From IMG/VR virus record IMGVR_UViG_2541047932_000021: 33,489 bases of DNA; one strand, 5' to 3'. A program made the position numbers and the translations under genes. The stretch comes from a virus. Taxonomy: Duplodnaviria > Heunggongvirae > Uroviricota > Caudoviricetes. Each line of letters opens with the position of its first letter. Position 1 is the stretch's first letter. Positions 5,028 to 32,789 of this stretch are shown piece after piece. The notes below the pieces were generated by a model. That model was not told the origin of the DNA and did not search any database. It was given only the letters and a program-made list of their open reading frames with translations.

Positions 5028-7685
5028 ATGACGGCAGAGTACATCAGGGACTGGCAACAACCGCGCCACGCAGTGGGGCGTGAAGGAACGGGGATCCCCG
5101 CTCCTGAATCCGCGCTTTCCTCCTGGCTGGATGCCTACCGGGCAGAGAACGAGCGCCGCCAGGAAATGGCTGATGCGGCGTTCTCCGCCACGCCGCTGGG
5201 CAACCTGATTAATAAAAGCCTGGACGCACAGGAAAAACAGGACAAAACAATCACACTGGCAGGAGACGCCAGAAAACAGGCACGCGGCGCGGTAGATGAG
5301 GCCATGGCCTCACTGCGCCTGCTGCCGTCCTATCTGCGCGATCCGCTTATTCGCCACCTCTCCTTCCTGCGCAAAAAACAGGAAGCCGATCGTCAGAAAG
5401 GAAAAAACGCCAGGCAGGCAGAACGCTATGCGCGTGGGACCCTGCGCAAAATATTCGAACGTCTGGAGCGCACCGATCACCGCTGGCTGACATCGGGTTA
5501 TCGCTCCCTTGCCGGACGTGAACGCCTGGACGATTTGCTTTACCTGCCGCAACTCAACAAACACCAGATACAGACGCTGGCCACCATGACGGCGGCGATG
5601 TTCAGCAGCACCTTCGAAAAACTCTGCGATGGTTTTGGCGCGACTGATGGCGAGCTGACCATGGATGTAACGCTGAAGGCGTATCAGATGCTGGCCCGCA
5701 TGGCGTTACACTTACACGCCATGCCTCCGCATTATGACGCACTGACAACAGACAAAGACCGGAGGCACGAACCGGACACAGAACTGCTGCCGGGCGCAAT
5801 CCTTCGCCTGACCTGTGCGGAATGGTGGAAACGCAAACTGTGGCTGTTACGTTGCGAGTGGAGAGAAGAACAACTCCGCGCCGCCTGTCTGGTTTCCAGA
5901 AAAACATCGCCCTATCTGAGCCAGGACGCGTTAAGCGAGTTTCGCGCACAGCGCGAGAAAACACGCGATTTCCTGAAAAGTTTCATGCTGGAAAATGAAG
6001 ACGGGTTCACGATTGATCTCGAGACGGTGTATTACGCGGGAGTAAGTAACCCGGTTCACCGTAAGGCAGAAATGATGGCCACCATGAAGGGGCTGGAACT
6101 TCTGGCCGAAGCCCGTGGCGACAAAGCGGTGTTTCTGACTGTCACCTGCCCGTCAAAATACCACGCCACAACGGAGAACGGTCATCCGAATCCCAAATGG
6201 AACGGGGCCACAATGCGCGACTCCAGCGATTACCTGGTTAACACGTTTTTTGCGGCGGTCCGCAAAAAACTGAACCGCGACGACCTGCGCTGGTATGGCA
6301 TCCGCACGGTGGAGCCTCATCATGACGGCACCGTGCACTGGCATATGATGGTCTTTGCACATCCGGAAGAAATCGACACCATTGTGTCCCATACCCGCGA
6401 TATTGCCATTCAGGAAGACCGCCACGAGCTGGGCAATGATATTACTCCGCGCTTTAAGGTGGAGTATGTCGACGGCTCAAAAGGCACGCCAACCAGCTAC
6501 ATCGCCACCTACATCGGAAAGAACCTGGACAGCCGCGCCGTGGATGGCATCGACCCGAAAACGGACAAGCCACGCGTGGACCACGAAACCGGAAAATCAA
6601 TGGCCGAGAGCGTGGAACGCGCCATCGGCTGGGCGCGTCTTCACCGCGTCCGCCAGTTCCAGTTCTTTGGTATCCCCCCCCGTCAGGTATGGCGTGAACT
6701 CCGCCGCCTTGCCAGTCAGATGGCCCGCAACCCGGAAGGTCCACAACGTCTGGAAAATGACGCAATGGATGCGGTACTCGCTGCCGCTGATGCCGGGTGT
6801 TTTGCCACCTACATTGAGAAACAGGGTGGCGTACTTGTTCCACGCAAAGACTACCTGATTCGCACCGCCTACGACCTCGCAGAAGAGCTGAACGATTACG
6901 GCGAGCAAAGCGTACAGATTTACGGGATCTGGTCGCCACAAATCGGGGAATCTTCCCGCGTGTGCACGCACCCGGATAACTGGAAGCTGGTAAGACGTAA
7001 ACCGGAAGCGGAAGACAGCGCCCGCGAAAATGGTTTTGACCTTCAGGGCGGCCCTGCCGCCCCTTGGACTCGTGGCAATAACTGTCCCCGTGTACAGGAA
7101 ACGGACAACAACGGGACAGAACAGCCGGAAGAACGGCCAGCACCGTGGCCGCAGCTCCCTGACGGCGTTGAAGTGAACGAATGGATGCGCTCACTGAAAC
7201 GGCACGAACGCCGGGCGCTGATGCGTTCGCTTCGTGACAAACAGGCAAAAAACAGCAGTGATGAAGCGCAGAGCTGGACACAGAGCCGCAAACAGCAGCG
7301 GCCTTTGCCTGATAACCACGAATTACTCGCTAAAGAATGGCGGGAGTCTGCTGAATCTCTCGGCCTGCATATCGGTGAACAACAGATGCAGCACCTGTTA
7401 CGGGGCGGCAGTCTGTACGTTGACGGCAGCATCATTGCACCGCAGGGATTTGAAATTGTACGCAAACCGGATACCCGCCTGGACAGCCGAATCACGCAGC
7501 TCTGGCAGCGCCTGAGCCGTAATCATGGCGTAAGCAGCACGGAGATCCGCCATAACCCGGTCGCCAGCTATCTGGCACAGCTGGGGGCATCAGACCCTGA
7601 AGCCGCCGCACGCCTGGCATCGCCCCCATCAGTTGCGGCGGAACGCGGTGCGCAGCCAGCACATCATCACGGGATGCCGCCTTAA
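5028..7685 (+). CDS. A: Rolling-circle replication initiator endonuclease gpA (HUH family); 3' end uncertain
   Basis: 885 aa; HUH motif region HHDGTVHWHMMVFAHPEE; tyrosine region TSYIATYIGKN; ORF overlaps convergent Q by 194 nt so the true stop may be earlier. Confidence 0.8.
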   Translation: MTAEYIRDWQQPRHAVGREGTGIPAPESALSSWLDAYRAENERRQEMADAAFSATPLGNLINKSLDAQEKQDKTITLAGDARKQARGAVDEAMASLRLLPSYLRDPLIRHLSFLRKKQEADRQKGKNARQAERYARGTLRKIFERLERTDHRWLTSGYRSLAGRERLDDLLYLPQLNKHQIQTLATMTAAMFSSTFEKLCDGFGATDGELTMDVTLKAYQMLARMALHLHAMPPHYDALTTDKDRRHEPDTELLPGAILRLTCAEWWKRKLWLLRCEWREEQLRAACLVSRKTSPYLSQDALSEFRAQREKTRDFLKSFMLENEDGFTIDLETVYYAGVSNPVHRKAEMMATMKGLELLAEARGDKAVFLTVTCPSKYHATTENGHPNPKWNGATMRDSSDYLVNTFFAAVRKKLNRDDLRWYGIRTVEPHHDGTVHWHMMVFAHPEEIDTIVSHTRDIAIQEDRHELGNDITPRFKVEYVDGSKGTPTSYIATYIGKNLDSRAVDGIDPKTDKPRVDHETGKSMAESVERAIGWARLHRVRQFQFFGIPPRQVWRELRRLASQMARNPEGPQRLENDAMDAVLAAADAGCFATYIEKQGGVLVPRKDYLIRTAYDLAEELNDYGEQSVQIYGIWSPQIGESSRVCTHPDNWKLVRRKPEAEDSARENGFDLQGGPAAPWTRGNNCPRVQETDNNGTEQPEERPAPWPQLPDGVEVNEWMRSLKRHERRALMRSLRDKQAKNSSDEAQSWTQSRKQQRPLPDNHELLAKEWRESAESLGLHIGEQQMQHLLRGGSLYVDGSIIAPQGFEIVRKPDTRLDSRITQLWQRLSRNHGVSSTEIRHNPVASYLAQLGASDPEAAARLASPPSVAAERGAQPAHHHGMPP

Positions 7686-11260: not shown

Positions 11261-12313
11261 ATGAATCTGGTGATGTCAGATATTACCCGCAACAAGCTGG
11301 GTTGCTATATGGCGCAGCAGGCGTCGCTTAACAATATCCCGGTATCTGCACTGGTATCGCGATTTACCGTGGAACCCGCGGTGCAGCAGCGTTTTGAAAA
11401 CGCCTCAAAGGAAAGTACCGAATTTACGAAAAGAATTAACGTGATCGGCGTGACCGACCAGAAAGGCGAAAAAATCCTCCTGGACACCACCGGGCCAATT
11501 GCGCGCACGAATAGCAGTTATGACGGCATCAAACGCCGTAACCCGAATAACGTGCTCGATATGAAGTCTCGTCAGTACCAGTGCGAACAGGTGAACTACG
11601 ATACCTTTATTTCGTACCCACAGCTTGATACCTGGGCAGCCCACAGCGATTTTCAGTCCCGTATCAGTACACAGATCGCCCGGCAGGTAGCGCTTGATCG
11701 CATCATGATTGGCTTTAACGGCACATCCCACGCCTACGAGTCTGATTTTCACACCAACAAGCTGCTTCAGGACGTTAACGTGGGCTGGCTGGAGCACATC
11801 AGAACCGATGCCAGCGAGCGCGTAATGAATGACGTGACGCTGACCTCCCGCAACATGGACAACACTGTGGCGCACGCGGGTAAGTATGCGAATGCCGATG
11901 CTCTGGTACAGGATGCGCGCTCATCCCTGCTGGATGAATGGCACAAGGAAGCTGACGACCTCGCGGTGATTATGGGGCGCAACCTGTTTAACTCGCTGCG
12001 TCTGCCCGTGCTGAACAGCATCAGCGGCCAGAATCCCAATGCGGAATTACTTGCCGGGCAGCTCATCCTGTCATCGCGCACCATTGGCGGGCTGGGCGTG
12101 TTCCTTGCGCCGTTCTTCCCGGATGCAACGATGCTTATCACCTCGTTCAACAACCTGTCGATTTACTGGCAGAAAGGTTCAATGCGTCGCCTGATGAAAG
12201 ACGAGCCGGAATACAACCGCATCGCCACCTACCAGTCCATCAATGACGCTTATGTCGTTGAAGACTATGGCAAGTGCGCGATGATCACTGGCCTGAAGTT
12301 CGCCGACAGCTAA
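11261..12313 (+). CDS. N: Major capsid protein gpN
   Basis: 350 aa; P2 gpN-like motifs FTVEP, VGWL, NLSIYW, YVVEDY. Confidence 0.9.
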   Translation: MNLVMSDITRNKLGCYMAQQASLNNIPVSALVSRFTVEPAVQQRFENASKESTEFTKRINVIGVTDQKGEKILLDTTGPIARTNSSYDGIKRRNPNNVLDMKSRQYQCEQVNYDTFISYPQLDTWAAHSDFQSRISTQIARQVALDRIMIGFNGTSHAYESDFHTNKLLQDVNVGWLEHIRTDASERVMNDVTLTSRNMDNTVAHAGKYANADALVQDARSSLLDEWHKEADDLAVIMGRNLFNSLRLPVLNSISGQNPNAELLAGQLILSSRTIGGLGVFLAPFFPDATMLITSFNNLSIYWQKGSMRRLMKDEPEYNRIATYQSINDAYVVEDYGKCAMITGLKFADS

Positions 12314-14283: not shown

Positions 14284-14672
14284 GCAACACATTTAAATTC
14301 AGCAGCCGGAGCGAAAAGAATTTGCAGGGCGTAAATCCTGATCTGGTGAAAGTGACCCGACGGGCACTGGAAATTTCGGAAGTGGATTTTGGTATCACCG
14401 AAGGATTGCGCAGCCGTTACCGCCAGAAGCAACTTGTGGCCACGGGTAAGAGCCATACCATAAACAGCCGCCACCTTACGGGGCATGCCGTGGATGTTGT
14501 GGCTTATGTCGGCAGCCAGGTGTCATGGGAATGGCCGCTGTACGAAAAAATCGCAGCAGCATTCAGACAGGCCAGCCAGGAACTGAATATTCCGGTGGAA
14601 TGGGGCGGCGACTGGAAGACCCTGAAAGACGGACCGCATTTTCAGTTACCACACGGAGCCTATCCGGCATGA
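14280..14672 (+). CDS. Endolysin, peptidase M15 (L-alanyl-D-glutamate peptidase) type
   Basis: 130 aa; metal-binding motifs SRH...GHAVD characteristic of the M15 endolysin family. Confidence 0.75.
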   Translation: MSNTFKFSSRSEKNLQGVNPDLVKVTRRALEISEVDFGITEGLRSRYRQKQLVATGKSHTINSRHLTGHAVDVVAYVGSQVSWEWPLYEKIAAAFRQASQELNIPVEWGGDWKTLKDGPHFQLPHGAYPA

Positions 14673-15142
14673 AGCTCTGGCCCACGCTTGGCGTCGCTTT
14701 CCTTCTGATTGCCGCATGGGGAACATCCATGCGTCTGTCGTGGTCGCTGGGCCGGGAGAACGCCAGAAACGAAGCGCAGACCAGCACCCTGAAAAGTACC
14801 GTCGACACACTGAATATCATCAGCGCCGGGGTACAGGATATGCAGCAGGTGCTGGCTCAACTCCGCGCGGAAAATCAGCAACGCAATCAGGACGGAGAGG
14901 TAAGACGTGAACAGCTACGCAACGATATTGCAAAAGATGAATGCGCCCACGCTTTGCCTGACGCTCGTTTTACTGACAGGTTGCGCAGGCACGCAGAACG
15001 CGCCACGGCCAGCGCCGTCAATCCGGCTTATACCGCAGACGCTGACCATGCCGGTAACGCCTCCCCCCTTCCCTGCCCCACCCACATGGGGAAACCTCGG
15101 AATATGGGGCGACCGCCTTCTGGATGCACTGGAAACCTGTAA
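14669..15142 (+). CDS. i-spanin (Rz/LysB-like)
   Basis: ATG 14669 overlaps the endolysin stop; N-terminal transmembrane segment MKLWPTLGVAFLLIAAWGTS followed by a charged, helical periplasmic part. Confidence 0.7.
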   Translation: MKLWPTLGVAFLLIAAWGTSMRLSWSLGRENARNEAQTSTLKSTVDTLNIISAGVQDMQQVLAQLRAENQQRNQDGEVRREQLRNDIAKDECAHALPDARFTDRLRRHAERATASAVNPAYTADADHAGNASPLPCPTHMGKPRNMGRPPSGCTGNL

Positions 15143-15218
15143 CGCGGATAAACGGGCCATTGCTGAACTGGATAAGAGAATAGCCGAACTGACACACCAG
15201 ACGGGAGTAACACAATGA
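14907..15218 (+). CDS. o-spanin (Rz1/LysC-like outer-membrane lipoprotein), partly nested in the i-spanin gene
   Basis: Different frame starting inside the i-spanin gene; lipobox LLTGC; proline-rich; SD GGAGAGG before GTG 14907 (alternative start ATG 14937). Confidence 0.7.
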   Translation: MNSYATILQKMNAPTLCLTLVLLTGCAGTQNAPRPAPSIRLIPQTLTMPVTPPPFPAPPTWGNLGIWGDRLLDALETCNADKRAIAELDKRIAELTHQTGVTQ

Positions 15219-17095
15219 CCAGTAAGAACTTTGCACTGATTACAGCCATGACACAGGCTGAACTGACCCGGAAAGTGAATGAATATCTTGCGAAGGGGTG
15301 GCATCTTCAGGGGGACACACGGGTAGCTTACGAGCCCGGCACCCCGTGGTATCTCATGCAGGCCATGGTGGCCGATGGTGCCACCGAGACGCCCTCTGAG
15401 CCATTACCAAACAACAAGACGCCGGAATGGTACTACGTGGTTGTGCTTGCCGGGCAGTCCAACGGCATGGCTTACGGTGAAGGGCTTCCGTTACCGGATT
15501 CTTACGATGCTCCGGATCCGCGCATTAAACAGCTTGCGCGCCGCAGTACGGTAACCCCGGGTGGAGAGGGTTGTACGTATAACGACATCATCCCGGCTGA
15601 CCACTGTCTGCATGATGTGCAGGATATGAGTACGCTGAATCATCCGAAGGCGGACCTGAGCAAAGGTCAGTACGGCTGTGTGGGACAGGGACTTCATATT
15701 GCCAAAAAACTACTCCCGTATATCCCGAATAACGCGGGGATCCTGCTGGTACCATGCTGTCGTGGTGGTTCGGCATTCACTCAGGGCGCGGAGGGAACAT
15801 TCAGTACGACCACGGGGGCCAGCCAGGATTCGGCGCGCTGGGGTGCGGGTAAGCCGTTATATCAGGACCTGATCGCACGCACCAAAGCGGCATTACAGAA
15901 GAACCCGAAAAATGTGTTGCTGGCGGTGTGCTGGATGCAGGGCGAATTTGACATGAGCGCTGCCACCTACGCACAGCAACCGGACCTGTTCACGGCCATG
16001 CTGAAGCAGTTCCGTACTGACCTTTCCGGATTTAACGCGCAGTGCCATGGCGGCAGTGCTGCAGTTATACCGTGGATTTGTGGCGACACGACGTATTACT
16101 GGAAAAACACATACGGCACACAGTATGACTCCGTCTACGGCGCGTACAAAAACAGGGAGAGCGACAACGTTTTCTTTGTGCCGTTCATGACCGACGGTAA
16201 CGGCAACAACACGCCCACCAACTTACCGGCAGAAGACCCGGATATTGCTGATGCAGGTTATTACGGCGCGCAATCCCGTAGTAATGGTAATTGGGTATCG
16301 TCAAATCGTCCGACACATTTCAGTTCATGGGCGCGCAGGGGCATTATTTCGGATCGCCTGGCAACCGCTATTCTGAACGCAGTTGGTCGAACCAGCGCCT
16401 TCATCAGCGGTACCGCACCGGAAATCAAACCCTCGCCCGGCGGCGACACTCCATCGGGGCCGTCTGATGGTGACACATCCGTTCGTACAGTCTCCCTGCT
16501 GCCGACAGCCGGAGAGGCTGCTGCGCAGGGCTGGACCATCACCGGCGGCAGTGTTGCGCTGGAAGATGGTGTGTTTAAGGTTACCAAGCAGAGCAATAAA
16601 ACTTGGTCCCTGATGCATCCGGTGGATGACGCAGTCTCCCTGCTGACACGGGGTGGCAGACTGAGCTGTAAGTTTCGACTGTCAGGCGCACTGACCAACA
16701 ACCAGTTCGGTCTGGGAATTTATCTGTATACCGATGTAGCGTTACCTGACGTCGTGGCGATGACCGGGACTGGTAACCCGTTCCTGATGTCGTTCTTCAC
16801 CCAGACCACAGACGGCAAACTGAATCTGATGCATCACAAGAAAGCCGGAAACACAAAGTTGGGTGAGTTCGGGAATTACAGTAACGACTGGCAGACGCTG
16901 GAGCTGGTGTTCACCGCCGGCAGTGCCACGGTTACTCCGAAACTGAATGGAGTGGCTGGCCCGGCATTCCAGGTCATAAAAGACAGTCTGACACTGGGGC
17001 TGAATGCGCTGACGTTAACTGATATCACTAAAAATGCCGCGTACGGCGTCGATATCGGCAGCCTGGTGCTGGAAATCAATAATCCCGCAGTATAA
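15215..17095 (+). CDS. NanS-p-like carbohydrate O-acetylesterase (DUF1737 N-domain, SASA/SGNH-type esterase core, C-terminal beta-rich domain)
   Basis: 626 aa; N-terminus MTSKNFALITAMTQAELTRKVNEYLAKGWHLQGD; GQSN motif in VVVLAGQSNGMAYGE; ATG overlaps the o-spanin stop. Confidence 0.7.
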   Translation: MTSKNFALITAMTQAELTRKVNEYLAKGWHLQGDTRVAYEPGTPWYLMQAMVADGATETPSEPLPNNKTPEWYYVVVLAGQSNGMAYGEGLPLPDSYDAPDPRIKQLARRSTVTPGGEGCTYNDIIPADHCLHDVQDMSTLNHPKADLSKGQYGCVGQGLHIAKKLLPYIPNNAGILLVPCCRGGSAFTQGAEGTFSTTTGASQDSARWGAGKPLYQDLIARTKAALQKNPKNVLLAVCWMQGEFDMSAATYAQQPDLFTAMLKQFRTDLSGFNAQCHGGSAAVIPWICGDTTYYWKNTYGTQYDSVYGAYKNRESDNVFFVPFMTDGNGNNTPTNLPAEDPDIADAGYYGAQSRSNGNWVSSNRPTHFSSWARRGIISDRLATAILNAVGRTSAFISGTAPEIKPSPGGDTPSGPSDGDTSVRTVSLLPTAGEAAAQGWTITGGSVALEDGVFKVTKQSNKTWSLMHPVDDAVSLLTRGGRLSCKFRLSGALTNNQFGLGIYLYTDVALPDVVAMTGTGNPFLMSFFTQTTDGKLNLMHHKKAGNTKLGEFGNYSNDWQTLELVFTAGSATVTPKLNGVAGPAFQVIKDSLTLGLNALTLTDITKNAAYGVDIGSLVLEINNPAV

Positions 17096-17118
17096 GGAAG
17101 AGCAGGAGAGCAAAACAG

Positions 17119-17586
17119 ATGCTTAAGACAAACAGTCTGCGAGAGTCCATGCTTCATGGATGTCGGTGGTGCCAGGCTAATCCCGAGAAATTCACCATTT
17201 TCGTGGAGAGCGGCAACATTGAAACGACCGGAGAAGCGCCCTCGTTTGTTTACCGCTATCAGATGGTGATGTTTGTCATGGATTACGCCGGAGAGCTGGA
17301 CGACCTCACGCTGCCGCTGCTGGCGTGGTTATCCGAAAATCAGCCACAGTTGTTGCTCAATCCGGAGCGTAATCAGGACATCAAATTTTCTGCCGTTATC
17401 AATGACGATGACAGCGCCGATCTCCTGTTTACGCTCCCCCTGCGGGAACGCGTTCGCATCACGCGCAACAGTCAGGGCACACCGCAGGCAGAACACCTGC
17501 CGGAGCCAAAACCCCGTCTGCCTTCTTCCGAAGGCGACTGGTCGCATGTATTCCAGGATGTGACGTGGGGTGAAAGCGATGGATAA
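17119..17586 (+). CDS. R: Tail completion protein gpR
   Basis: 155 aa; P2 gpR-like (LPLLAWLSENQP). Confidence 0.8.
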   Translation: MLKTNSLRESMLHGCRWCQANPEKFTIFVESGNIETTGEAPSFVYRYQMVMFVMDYAGELDDLTLPLLAWLSENQPQLLLNPERNQDIKFSAVINDDDSADLLFTLPLRERVRITRNSQGTPQAEHLPEPKPRLPSSEGDWSHVFQDVTWGESDG

Positions 17587-20039: not shown

Positions 20040-20640
20040 TTCACTGTTACCACCATCAGCCAGCAATTTCATGCGTTGTGCCGAAGCCGTCGGAACACGC
20101 ATTACAGACATTCCGGTAGACCTCAACACGCTGTGGTCGCCGGACACCTGCCCGGTGCATCTGCTGCCTTATCTCGCCTGGGCGTTTTCCGTTGACCGCT
20201 GGGATCGCAACTGGCCGGAAGAGACAAAGCGACAGGTGATTCGTGATGCATGGCTGACACACCGACACAAAGGGACCATCAGCGCACTGCGAAGAGCCGT
20301 GGAGCCTCTCGGCTACCTGATTGAAGTAAAGGAGTGGTGGCAACTCAACGAGGAGCCAGGAACATTTCGCATTGTTGTCGGAGTACTTGATCAGGGCATC
20401 ACCGATGAAATGTATCAGGAACTTGAGCGCCTTATTGCGGATGCAAAACCAGTAAGTCGCCATCTGACGGGGCTGGCGATCAGCCTGAGTGTGAACGGAA
20501 AGATTTTCGTTGGTACGGGATGCTATCACGGCGATGCCCTGACGGTTTATCCCTACATCCCGGAGTCCATTATTGTCGAAGGGGATTATTTCCCTGCCCC
20601 GGCCATTCATTTAATTGATAATCTGAGAGTAAACGCATGA
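20032..20640 (+). CDS. I: Baseplate / tail formation protein gpI
   Basis: ATG 20032 overlaps the J stop; [14 protein letters not shown] and VSRHLTG motifs as in P2 gpI. Confidence 0.85.
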
Positions 20641-22640
20641 CAGTGAAATACTACGCCATTCTGACTAATCAGGGCGCGGCACGACTGGCTAACGCGACGA
20701 TGCTCGGCAGTAAGCTGAATCTGACGCAAATGGCCGTTGGTGATGCAAATGGTGTGTTACCAACACCAGACCCTGCACAAACAAAACTGATTAACCAGAA
20801 ACGCATTGCACCGCTGAATCTTCTGAATGTTGACCCTAACAATCAGAGCCAGATTATTGCGGAGCAAATCATCCCTGAAGACGAGGGAGGATTCTGGATC
20901 CGTGAGATTGGTCTTTATGATGATAAAGGTGTACTCATTGCGGTGGCAAACTGCCCGGAAACGTACAAACCGCAGTTGCAGGAAGGCAGTGGACGCACCC
21001 AGACTATCCGCATGATTCTGGTTGTCACGAACACCAAAGCCATCACGCTGAAAATCGACCCGTCTGTGGTTCTGGCAACCCGCAAATATGTGGATGATAA
21101 AATCTCAAAGCACGAGCAGTCACGACGTCACCCGGACGCCTCGCTGACCGCAAAAGGCTTTGTTCAACTCAGTAGCGCCACCAACAGCGATTCAGAAACG
21201 CTGGCGGCAACACCAAAGGCGGTAAAGGCAGCCTATGACCTTGCTAACGGGAAATATACCGCACAGGACGCCACGACAGCACAAAAAGGCATTGTCCAGC
21301 TCAGTAGCGCCACCAACAGCGATTCAGAAACGCTGGCGGCAACACCAAAGGCGGTAAAGGCAGCCTATGACCTTGCTAACGGGAAATATACCGCACAGGA
21401 CGCCACGACGGCACAAAAAGGAATTGTCCAGCTCAGTAGTGCAACCAACAGCACATCTGAAACGCTTGCTGCAACACCGAAAGCAGTGAAAGCAGCTAAT
21501 GACAATGCGAATGGTCGGGTACCTTCTGCCCGTAAGGTGAATGGTAAGGCGCTTTCGGCGGATATAACACTGACGCCGAAAGATATTGGTACGCTTAACT
21601 CAACAACAATGTCATTCAGCGGTGGTGCTGGTTGGTTCAAATTAGCAACGGTAACCATGCCACAGGCGAGTTCTGTTGTTTCAATTACGTTGATTGGTGG
21701 CGCTGGATTTAACGTCGGTTCACCTCAACAGGCAGGTATATCTGAACTTGTTTTGCGTGCAGGTAATGGTAATCCGAAGGGGATTACTGGTGCTTTATGG
21801 CAGCGCACATCGACAGGGTTTACAAATTTTGCCTGGGTCAATACATCTGGTGATACTTACGATATTTACGTTGCAATCGGAAATTATGCGACTGGTGTAA
21901 ATATTCAATGGGATTATACCAGTAATGCCAGCGTGACGATTCATACGTCACCAGCATATTCTGCTAATAAGCCGGAAGGGTTAACGGACGGTACAGTTTA
22001 TTCACTCTATACGCCATCAGAGCAGTTTTATCCGCCTGGCGCACCAATCCCGTGGCCATCGGATACCGTTCCGTCTGGTTATGCCCTGATGCAGGGGCAG
22101 ACTTTTGACAAATCTGCCTACCCGAAACTTGCAGCCGCTTATCCGTCAGGCGTGATCCCTGATATGCGTGGCTGGACGATTAAGGGCAAACCCGCCAGTG
22201 GCCGGGCCGTATTGTCTCAGGAACAGGACGGCATTAAATCGCACACCCACAGCGCCAGCGCATCCAATACGGATTTGGGGACGAAAACCACATCGTCGTT
22301 TGATTACGGTACTAAAACGACCAGTTCATTTGATTACGGCACAAAAACCACAAATAGCGCAGGAGCTCATTCACACAATATACCTGTTGGTCACACTGGC
22401 GCGGGGAATGGTGTATCAGCCGGTTATAACGCTGCGTTAGGTACTGGTACCACGTCGAGCGCAGGAGAGCATGCTCACAATGTATATATCGGTGCCCATA
22501 ACCACACTATCGGCATTGGTGCTCATGCCCATTCTGTCATTATTGGTCCCCACGGACACACCATCACCGTTAATGCTACGGGGAACGCAGAAAACACCGT
22601 AAAAAACATCGCATTTAACTATATTGTGAGGCTTGCATAA
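20637..22640 (+). CDS. H: Tail fibre protein gpH with internal tandem repeats and His-rich C-terminal region
   Basis: 667 aa; N-terminus and C-terminus ([39 protein letters not shown]...[18 protein letters not shown]) match P2 gpH as recalled. Confidence 0.9.
21168..21563 (+). repeat. Three in-frame tandem 132-bp (44-aa) repeats inside gene H
   Basis: Unit starts at 21168, 21300 and 21432; copies 1 and 2 differ at 2 of 132 nt; copy 3 is diverged. Confidence 0.9.
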
Positions 22641-23261: not shown

Positions 23262-23834
23262 CTATTTATACAATACAGCACCGCTCTTTTTAGTTATATA
23301 TGTGCAGTTCGATGGTATATCTTTATTTATAAAAGACATTGCACCTATTTTTACATTATCCCCAATTTTACGGGATAATCCAATGATGCAACAATTAGCT
23401 CCGATATCAACGTTGCTACCAATTTTTACTCTTGAACCAGGTATGTCACCATCTATCTGTCCAATGGTCGTATTCTGTCGTAACACCAGATTTTCACCAG
23501 CATCAACAGCAAAATGAACAACAATTCCAGCATGATGGGGAATTGTTAACCCTTTTCCAATATTTGCGCCCAATCCAATTTCGCAACCAAATTTGTTAAT
23601 TATTTTACTGTTTAACTTCTTGGCTGCTTTCTTATGTAATTTATTACCATTAATATACATTTCGTTAGCCAACCGCCACCAGAAAAGGAAATTCCTGTTA
23701 CGCTGCTTTTTCTCTCTTAAAAGCCTCCAGATATCCATACGTTTCCGCCGAATTACTTCATGTTTCCAGAAGTTTTTTAAATTAGTAGAGTTCCCAAATA
23801 AAACAAAGTGAATTGCCATTAGGTAAGACAGCAC
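23262..23834 (-). CDS. Hexapeptide-repeat (left-handed beta-helix) acetyltransferase, CysE/NodL/NeuO-like; AT-rich cargo gene
   Basis: Core HHAGIVVHFAVDAGENLVLRQNTTIG...KIGSNVDIGANCCIIG; start set at GTG 23834 with AAGGAG 6 nt upstream (ORF track begins at 23867); AT-rich compared with flanking tail genes. Confidence 0.65.
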   Translation of the reverse strand: MLSYLMAIHFVLFGNSTNLKNFWKHEVIRRKRMDIWRLLREKKQRNRNFLFWWRLANEMYINGNKLHKKAAKKLNSKIINKFGCEIGLGANIGKGLTIPHHAGIVVHFAVDAGENLVLRQNTTIGQIDGDIPGSRVKIGSNVDIGANCCIIGLSRKIGDNVKIGAMSFINKDIPSNCTYITKKSGAVLYK

Positions 23835-32486: not shown

Positions 32487-32573
32487 TGGTACCCGGAGCG
32501 GGACTTGAACCCGCACAGCGCGAACGCCGAGGGATTTTAAATCCCTTGTGTCTACCGATTCCACCATCCGGGC
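32487..32573 (-). tRNA. leuZ: tRNA-Leu (anticodon UAA)
   Basis: 87 nt; reverse complement reads GCCCGGATGGTGGAATCGGTAGACACAAGGGATTTAAAATCCC...GGGTACCA with CCA end. Confidence 0.9.
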
Positions 32574-32585
32574 TCGGGAAGAAAG

Positions 32586-32659
32586 TGGAGGCGCGTTCCG
32601 GAGTCGAACCGGACTAGACGGATTTGCAATCCGCTACATAACCGCTTTGTTAACGCGCC
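32586..32659 (-). tRNA. cysT: tRNA-Cys (anticodon GCA)
   Basis: 74 nt; reverse complement reads GGCGCGTTAACAAAGCGG...ATTGCAAATCC...GCGCCTCCA. Confidence 0.9.
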
Positions 32660-32713
32660 AAATTCTTCAGGCCTTTCAGCCAGACATCCGCTTGACGCCG
32701 ATGTCTTTTAAAC

Positions 32714-32789
<76 letters not shown>

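Follow-up and report, generated by a model that had tools for sequence, protein, structure and literature searches.

A NanS-p family sialate O-acetylesterase gene between the lysis genes and tail gene R of a P88-like Escherichia coli prophage

We analyzed a stretch of viral DNA of 33,489 nucleotides (IMG/VR record IMGVR_UViG_2541047932_000021; the whole stretch is referred to as the window), which is a P88-like prophage (Xuanwuvirus, Peduoviridae) of the P2 type from Escherichia coli. Between the lysis cassette and tail gene R, the window contains a gene for a 626-aa protein of the NanS-p family of sialate O-acetylesterases. Here we describe this gene, its domain architecture and catalytic residues, the boundaries of its insertion, its distribution, the mosaic structure of the gene and the purifying selection acting on it. 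The overall explanation that we consider probable is that the protein is a NanS-p esterase encoded by a late accessory gene, released by lysis and provided with a P2-specific virion anchor. The esterase gene, its parts and its immediate neighbors are the following (coordinates are those of the window).

15215 to 17095, plus strand: NanS-p family sialate O-acetylesterase gene, ATG start, 626 aa, PHROG 143
15215 to 15379, plus strand: DUF1737 domain, aa 1-55, of a P2-type clade, proposed capsid anchor (PF08410, 27.5 bits)
15380 to 15418, plus strand: linker 1, aa 56-68, ATETPSEPLPNNK, disordered, predicted local confidence (pLDDT) below 50
15419 to 16378, plus strand: esterase core, aa 69-388, SASA/SGNH fold (PDB 3PT5, NanS)
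15458 to 15460 and 16316 to 16318, plus strand: codons of the catalytic residues Ser82, in GQSN (aa 80-83), and His368, in RPTHFSS; the QGE block is at aa 242-244
16379 to 16504, plus strand: linker 2, aa 389-430, Pro/Ser/Gly-rich, containing DTPSGP
16505 to 17092, plus strand: C-terminal DUF6645 lectin-like beta-sandwich, aa 431-626 (Pfam 70.1 bits; PDB 6YP6)
14937 to 15218, plus strand: LysC (Rz1-like o-spanin), final gene of the lysis cassette (Pfam LysC 52.3 bits; lipobox LLTGC)
15203 to 15218, plus strand: ribosome-binding site GGGAG (15203 to 15207) and ATGA start/stop overlap (15215 to 15218), read from the sequence
17119 to 17586, plus strand: tail completion protein R, the next gene of the late operon (Pfam P2_Phage_GpR 132.5 bits)
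15163 to 17136, plus strand: segment absent from phage P88, 1974 bp in place of 69 bp of P88 (from blastn and alignments)

We found that the start codon of the esterase gene (ATG, 15215 to 15217) overlaps the stop codon of LysC (TGA, 15216 to 15218) as ATGA, with GGGAG located 8 nt upstream. Upstream of the gene are a lambda-family holin, an M15 endolysin, a DUF2570 i-spanin and LysC, and downstream a 23-nt spacer is followed by R (P2 GpR) and then by an S-family morphogenesis protein. The gene order is therefore holin, endolysin, spanins, esterase, R, which places the gene next to the lysis genes in the late region of the prophage, as for other NanS-p genes. P88 is the closest phage backbone lacking the esterase, and in it LysC is followed directly by R. 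The window aligned to P88 (blastn) with 96.9% identity up to 15162 and with 96.6% identity again from 17137. The inserted segment consists of an alternative 3' end of LysC (the last ~18 codons, from 15163), the esterase gene, the 23-nt spacer, which includes a Shine-Dalgarno site, and the initial 18 nt of R. In P88, the LysC frame runs into the start of R; in the window, it overlaps the esterase instead, and R is preceded by a Shine-Dalgarno site of its own. An earlier reading of the window from its letters alone (the sequence-only reading) had described a 626-aa open reading frame (ORF) that is coupled to the o-spanin and interrupts a P2-type backbone between the lysis cassette and R, and both descriptions proved correct.

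All three domains of the esterase had a GC content of 0.55, equal to that of the flanking late genes. Promoter-like and terminator-like sites in the window were at or below the number expected from shuffled sequence, and no terminator-like site was found on the plus strand after 14066. Because of the ATGA overlap, the flank-like GC content and the lack of a promoter or terminator of its own, the esterase appears to be a passenger of the late capsid-lysis-R-S transcript, from which we predict it to be expressed late. No hydrophobic N-terminus or signal peptide was seen in the protein.

A Pfam domain search identified three domains, all above their gathering cut-offs: DUF1737 at aa 4-53 (27.5 bits), SASA at aa 75-271 (47.6 bits) and DUF6645 at aa 477-587 (70.1 bits), which is the architecture that had been predicted from the sequence. 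The protein also matched PHROG 143 over its full length (1081 bits), a family annotated as of unknown function, and its RefSeq label is only 'DUF6645 domain-containing protein'. The core (aa 69-388) could be aligned to crystallized E. coli NanS (3PT5, aa 17-332) over 316 residues, of which 58% were identical (E=1.3e-122). The homology is so strong that chance plays no role in the assignment. Ser82 aligned to Ser19 of NanS and His368 to His301. Among 42 aligned full-length homologues, Ser82, Gly243, Glu244 and His368 were invariant and Gln242 was nearly invariant. The core therefore has the GQSN block, the QGE block and the catalytic His in R-x-x-H-F-S-S that characterize the SASA/SGNH core of NanS-p. 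The classical SGNH triad of Ser, His and Asp with D-x-x-H in block V was not found, as block V of the window protein reads RPTH. EcNanS itself has no block V Asp (PMC9487903), so RPTH is the norm of the NanS family and no sign of inactivity. The sequence-only reading had named the lack of a conserved Ser/His/Asp set as a result that would refute its assignment; Ser and His are conserved, and the Asp part does not apply to a family whose reference member lacks it. The ratio of nonsynonymous to synonymous divergence (dN/dS) of the core was 0.07-0.11. Since the full-length AlphaFold2 (AF2) model was poor in the core (pLDDT below 50 for aa 56-169, from a shallow alignment), we relied on the 58% identical crystal structure for this region.

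All tested NanS-p proteins of EDL933 and O104:H4 are active esterases on Neu5,9Ac2, the 9-O-acetylated form of N-acetylneuraminic acid (PMC8065619). On every feature that can be read from sequence, the window protein is a member of the NanS-p family, and it is predicted to be an esterase acting on O-acetylated sialic acids.

The C-terminal domain was also related to a protein of known structure. Residues 431-623 matched the crystallized C-terminal domain of phi24B NanS-p (6YP6) with E=3.7e-30, and an AF2 model of the domain (pLDDT ~88) superposed on 6YP6 with a Foldseek TM score of 0.84 and a root-mean-square deviation of 1.9 Å. The next Foldseek matches were L-type lectins, the sialic-acid-binding domain of the V. 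cholerae sialidase and Hc domains of clostridial toxins. Four aromatic residues have been proposed as sugar-binding in phi24B; in the window protein, Tyr503 matches one of them exactly, Phe498 and Phe528 are conservative Tyr-to-Phe replacements, and the remaining one, a Phe, is Leu594. We regard the domain as a putative carbohydrate-binding module. Linker 1 was unconstrained (dN/dS 0.8-1.9) and had 0% identity to the linker of phage vB_EcoM-569R5. The DTPSGP motif of linker 2 resembles ETPSEP of linker 1.

The N-terminal domain matched DUF1737 (PF08410) with 27.5 bits, where the gathering cut-off is 24, and belongs to a divergent clade. In an AF2 model of aa 1-68 (pLDDT 78), a strand (aa 5-11) is followed by a helix (aa 14-26) and two further strands (aa 29-40 and 43-53), with the tip of the hairpin at Pro41-Gly42. 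This order of elements agrees with the description of the DUF1737 domain of phi24B. The domain was 22-36% identical to the lambdoid DUF1737 classes, and this low identity contrasted with the remainder of the protein. Compared with a lambdoid Stx1a-phage NanS-p, the core was 89% identical, the C-terminal domain 85% and DUF1737 34%. An even closer relative (representative P0014), which sits in a lambda-like phage with Nu1, GpA, gpW and portal_2, was 98% identical in the core and 97% in the C-terminal domain but 29% in the N-terminus. Searches with the 68-aa N-terminus were sparse, with only fragments returned by a word-indexed search and 7 representatives by an exhaustive HMMER search. Six proteins had an N-terminus 48-93% identical to that of the window, and all of them were encoded in Phage_cap_P2 backbones at the LysC-R slot. 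Members of this P2-type clade kept a related N-terminus even where the core was only 71-85% identical. In a tblastn search of 50,697 phage records, the N-terminus matched only three P88-like records.

We then compared the window gene with the allele of O104:H4 strain C227-11. The synonymous divergence (dS), taken domain by domain, was 0.38, 0.28, 0.06 and 0.014. Such differences between domains of a single allele pair indicate recombination inside the esterase gene. The dN/dS of DUF1737 was 0.06-0.27, so that the domain is as constrained as the catalytic core. The hairpin of the P2-type clade has the motif EPG[TV]P[WF]YLMQ. The lambdoid DUF1737 classes are nearly identical over their first 33 residues and differ mainly in the hairpin. 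Judged by these comparisons, the esterase gene is a mosaic with a DUF1737 clade that is found only in P2-type phages and is under purifying selection, and this part of the work is new. A strict one-to-one correspondence between DUF1737 class and head type inside the lambdoids was considered and rejected, as the 'ITPYTLMQ' class was found with both lambda-like and HK97-like heads; the distinction between classes holds only at the level of the phage family (P2, lambdoid, Mu). A separate observation concerns a metagenomic representative (P0132, 596 aa), in which five separate DUF1737-type stretches without any Pfam match may form a tandem array.

To describe how widespread the arrangement is, we searched complete E. 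coli genomes. The 3.5-kb stretch from the lysis genes through the esterase to R was present at a coverage of at least 80% in 373 of 5,426 genomes. Among these are 55989, the strains of the O104:H4 outbreak of 2011 and isolates whose listed sources are human, bovine, amphibian and environmental. The uninterrupted LysC-R junction of P88 type was present in 689 of the 5,426 genomes. Thus, roughly a third of P88-like sites are filled. Three P88-like phage records also carry the gene (vB_EcoM-569R5, vB_EcoM-705R2 and PV468777), two of which are filed under Peduoviridae. All three records end inside the esterase gene (L003 2935-4185; L005 4004-5467), and one record, ON470599, begins with the host genes ycaO, focA and pflB. 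The three look like prophage predictions that were cut at, or disrupted in, the esterase gene.

The same LysC-R slot was occupied in a second P2-type lineage (representatives P0046, P0061, P0087 and P0112), whose capsid protein is 61-63% identical and which has a lysozyme-type endolysin; a DUF1378 ORF follows the esterase in three of these four loci. The sequence-only reading had known of no NanS-p gene in a P2-type backbone, and the rarity that this suggested is not sustained by these counts. A relative of 682 aa was found in a Mu-like prophage (L014 9001-11049), recognized by Mu Gp45/46/48, an invertase, Com and a DNA methylase. This relative has a 110-aa N-terminal domain that is not DUF1737 and has no Pfam or PHROG match, and DUF1378 and DUF826 ORFs follow it. 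More generally, a small DUF1378 ORF stands just downstream of the esterase in loci of the lambdoid type, the Mu-like type and the second P2-type lineage (L010, L012, L013, L014 and L016-L018) and is missing from the window and from L011, while DUF826 is also present in L014, L016 and L017.

In the O104:H4 strain C227-11, the prophage has the same gene (626 aa, WP_000202135.1, locus AAF13_RS08490), with a core 95% identical and a C-terminal domain 100% identical to those of the window. O104:H4 genomes contain five SASA-core-like loci, and five nanS-p alleles have been described in O104:H4 (PMC8065619). The O104:H4 allele of the prophage gene has probably already been handled experimentally. In the literature that we searched, no paper linked nanS-p or an acetylesterase to P2-type phages of E. 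coli. As an enzyme, the protein is an unremarkable representative of an established family, and the lysis-esterase-R arrangement is frequent and present in strains that have been studied intensively.

These data lead to a model of how the enzyme would be made and used. The P2-type late operon would carry the esterase as an accessory gene, in the order capsid, lysis, esterase, R, S. Since the gene lacks both a promoter and a terminator of its own, and the protein a signal peptide, the enzyme would be made only on prophage induction and would leave the cell through phage lysis. It would take 7-, 8- or 9-O-acetyl groups off sialic acids, for example Neu5,9Ac2, using a NanS-type Ser82-His368 dyad with the GQSN and QGE blocks, and the lectin-like C-terminal domain would target it to glycans. 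At least transiently, the enzyme would be attached to the virion, and otherwise it would be released in soluble form and would de-O-acetylate mucin or free sialic acid for surviving lysogens, possibly also for phage in mucus. Recombination in the conserved core would move the esterase-lectin cargo from one phage family to another.

The attachment step follows a model reported for another phage. In phi24B, the homologous esterase gp84 is reported to be a major virion protein whose DUF1737 domain (a helix and three antiparallel strands) forms a hexamer in the pore of the hexons, and only of the flat ones at the facet centre of the T=9 capsid, with Tyr42 of the hairpin loop acting as a 'tooth', and gp84 is reported to be cleaved in both linkers (bioRxiv 10.64898/2026.04.10.717836). 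Since DUF1737 has this anchoring role in phi24B and the window protein has the same order of fold elements in a clade confined to P2-type phages, we propose that the P2-type DUF1737 serves as a virion adaptor; it would be a P2-type-specific version of the phi24B capsid-anchoring module. Gly55 aligns with phi24B Gly54, the last residue visible in the capsid density. By analogy with gp84, attachment to the virion is considered likely for the window protein, and its linkers may likewise be cleaved.

The strongest competing explanation is that the enzyme is soluble only. In this case, the gene would be a lysogen-fitness gene, by which a lysing subpopulation enables its siblings to feed on O-acetylated sialic acid. 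DUF1737 would have no role at the capsid and might be a folding, oligomerization or regulatory module, or a conserved passenger. This corresponds to the classical model of NanS-p, in which a soluble enzyme gives a growth advantage on Neu5,9Ac2. Several observations weigh against an anchor, some of them also in favor of this explanation. Capsids of the P2 family have, by textbook knowledge, a triangulation number of T=7 and lack a facet-centre hexon of the phi24B type. The phi24B tooth residue Tyr42 is replaced by Thr43 in the window protein, where Tyr39, Trp45 and Tyr46 flank the hairpin, and the identity of the domain to that of phi24B is only ~22%. A Foldseek search with the N-terminal model found nothing below E=0.1 in a PDB copy that did not contain the phi24B capsid model. 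Class and head type are also mismatched among the lambdoids: a single DUF1737 class is combined with two different head types, and a ClpP-capsid/cement head is shared by two classes. Finally, the tracking of the N-terminus with the backbone could stem from physical linkage between the 5' end and the genes upstream, combined with recombination in the core. Linkage leaves the strong purifying selection on DUF1737 unexplained, however.

Purifying selection on DUF1737 that is as strong as on the catalytic core speaks against an enzyme that is only soluble, as does the confinement of the clade to backbones of the P2 type while the other parts of the gene are freely exchanged with those of lambdoid alleles. 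In addition, capsid binding is the sole function demonstrated for DUF1737 (bioRxiv 10.64898/2026.04.10.717836). On balance, we give the soluble-only explanation somewhat less than an even chance and prefer a late accessory esterase with a virion anchor. A broader extension of this preferred explanation is tentative and, in our judgement, rather doubtful: that the N-termini of NanS-p proteins are interchangeable virion adaptors for one esterase-lectin cargo in lambdoid, P2-type and Mu-type phages, that P2-type capsids are decorated, and that receptor modification may occur on hosts such as O104, with O-acetylated sialic acid in their O antigen. To our knowledge, capsids of P2-type myoviruses have been considered undecorated to date.

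A second alternative involves another gene of the window, which was confirmed as an ORF on the minus strand.

23262 to 23834, minus strand: hexapeptide-repeat acetyltransferase, left-handed beta-helix, between the tail-fibre assembly gene and gpU

The sequence-only reading had paired this acetyltransferase with the esterase and suggested that both might act on the same surface glycan at different stages of the phage cycle. In an example of this, the acetyltransferase would acetylate the O antigen in the lysogen and the esterase would strip it at infection or release. Both genes do occur together in the window, in 55989 and in O104:H4. The O104 antigen is one of five O antigens with Neu5Ac or derivatives such as Neu5Ac,7Ac,9Ac (PMC7685785), and de-acetylation of the O antigen by NanS-p has been raised as an open possibility (PMC8065619). 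However, the acetyltransferase was absent from all five of the other esterase-bearing P2-type loci examined, and copies with 91% identity were found in phages of 80-100 kb (vB_EcoM-Ro157c2YLVW and JL22), far above the size of P2-type phages. The two genes are therefore independent acquisitions. P88 did not turn up among the acetyltransferase matches. The acetyltransferase also has a GC content of 0.356 compared with 0.55 for the esterase and lies on the opposite strand, which indicates a separate history and regulation. Its closest families were EpsC (74.8 bits against a cut-off of 150), CysE (61 against 211) and WcaB, all below the curated cut-offs, and its best PDB matches were serine acetyltransferases. 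Membership in the NeuD/NeuO type of sialate O-acetyltransferases was not supported, as NeuD_NnaD scored 30.5 bits against a cut-off of 160.8. The esterase arrangement itself occurs in 373 genomes of varied sources and hence beyond O104:H4 strains. The pairing is not supported; that the two enzymes share a surface glycan is improbable, and it is similarly improbable that the esterase acts on a bacterial glycan in strains of the O104 serogroup (55989 and the outbreak strains).

Least likely of all is that the protein is an unrelated SGNH lipase, an acetylxylan esterase or an inactive remnant: the SASA family does also hold putative acetylxylan esterases (PMC9487903) and the RefSeq product name carries no esterase label, but the identity is to biochemically characterized NanS and, at 71-98% in the core, to NanS-p alleles, and the ORF is intact, with invariant catalytic residues and a strongly constrained core.

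Other observations in the window concern the backbone. The window is 99.2-99.9% identical to a prophage of E. coli 55989, apart from a ~3-kb parM/partition module that is missing in the window at ~7611-7621 and comprises ParM-like segregation/partition genes and two hypothetical genes (55989 locus L001 7438-10411). In the i-spanin ORF (14669-15142), the stop codon of 55989 and P88 (15074-15076 in the window) is lost by a C for A at 15076. This substitution lengthens the DUF2570 i-spanin from 135 to 157 aa and, in the LysC frame that overlaps it, replaces Asp by Ala. The tail-fibre protein at 20637-22640 contains three tandem copies of a ~44-aa repeat, and its stretch at 22322-22470 did not align to 55989 at megablast level. 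PADLOC gave no defence-system match for the esterase or the acetyltransferase. A tRNA cluster lies at the right end of the window.

32487 to 32789, minus strand: tRNA-Leu(taa), tRNA-Cys(gca) and tRNA-Gly(gcc)

The corresponding cluster of 55989 is located beyond the prophage ogr and hok/gef genes and adjoins pgsA.

NanS-p proteins have been discussed as fitness or virulence factors of enterohaemorrhagic E. coli (EHEC) and regarded as a trait of Stx/lambdoid prophages. The filled P88-like sites, the second P2-type lineage and the Mu-like prophage reveal a mobile nanS-p pool that extends well beyond EHEC. The domain-wise mosaic also offers a concrete test of the capsid-anchor claim on a P2-type virion. 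If DUF1737 is an anchor, P2-type virions should carry aa 1-55, and swaps of the N-terminus should retarget the enzyme between phage types.

Compared with known systems, the backbone is closest to P88 (Xuanwuvirus P88), whose flanking late genes are 97% identical in nucleotide sequence; related prophages have a major capsid protein with 99% identity. In P88, LysC overlaps R directly and there is no esterase. The chromosomal NanS (YjhS, 3PT5) aligns with the core from end to end and shares the Ser-His dyad, GQSN, QGE and the lack of a block V Asp. Unlike the window protein, NanS has neither DUF1737 nor DUF6645.

The NanS-p proteins of Stx/lambdoid phages (933W L0105/z1466; phi24B vb_24B_21, which is gp84; 'yjhS' of Stx1a phage) have the same three domains as the window protein. 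Identity in the core ranges from 71% (phi24B) to 89-98% (Stx1a-type alleles), and in the C-terminal domain from 37 to 97%. The window protein shares with them the late-region position next to the lysis cassette, the block motifs and the RPTH variant, as in Stx2 phage 86. The backbones differ, being a P2-type myovirus in the window (Phage_cap_P2, GpR, GpU) and lambdoid in the NanS-p relatives. The P2-family capsid protein of the window is encoded at 11261-12313. The position also differs, as the gene follows the lysis genes in the window and lies between stx and S in Stx/lambdoid phages. There, the order is esterase, DUF1378/DUF826 where present, holin, while the window has no small DUF1378 or DUF826 ORFs. 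The esterase gp84 of phi24B sits on a T=9 capsid, whereas the capsid in the window is of the P2 family. The two proteins nevertheless have homologous DUF1737 domains with the same helix and three strands, and similar short motifs occur in both of their linkers.

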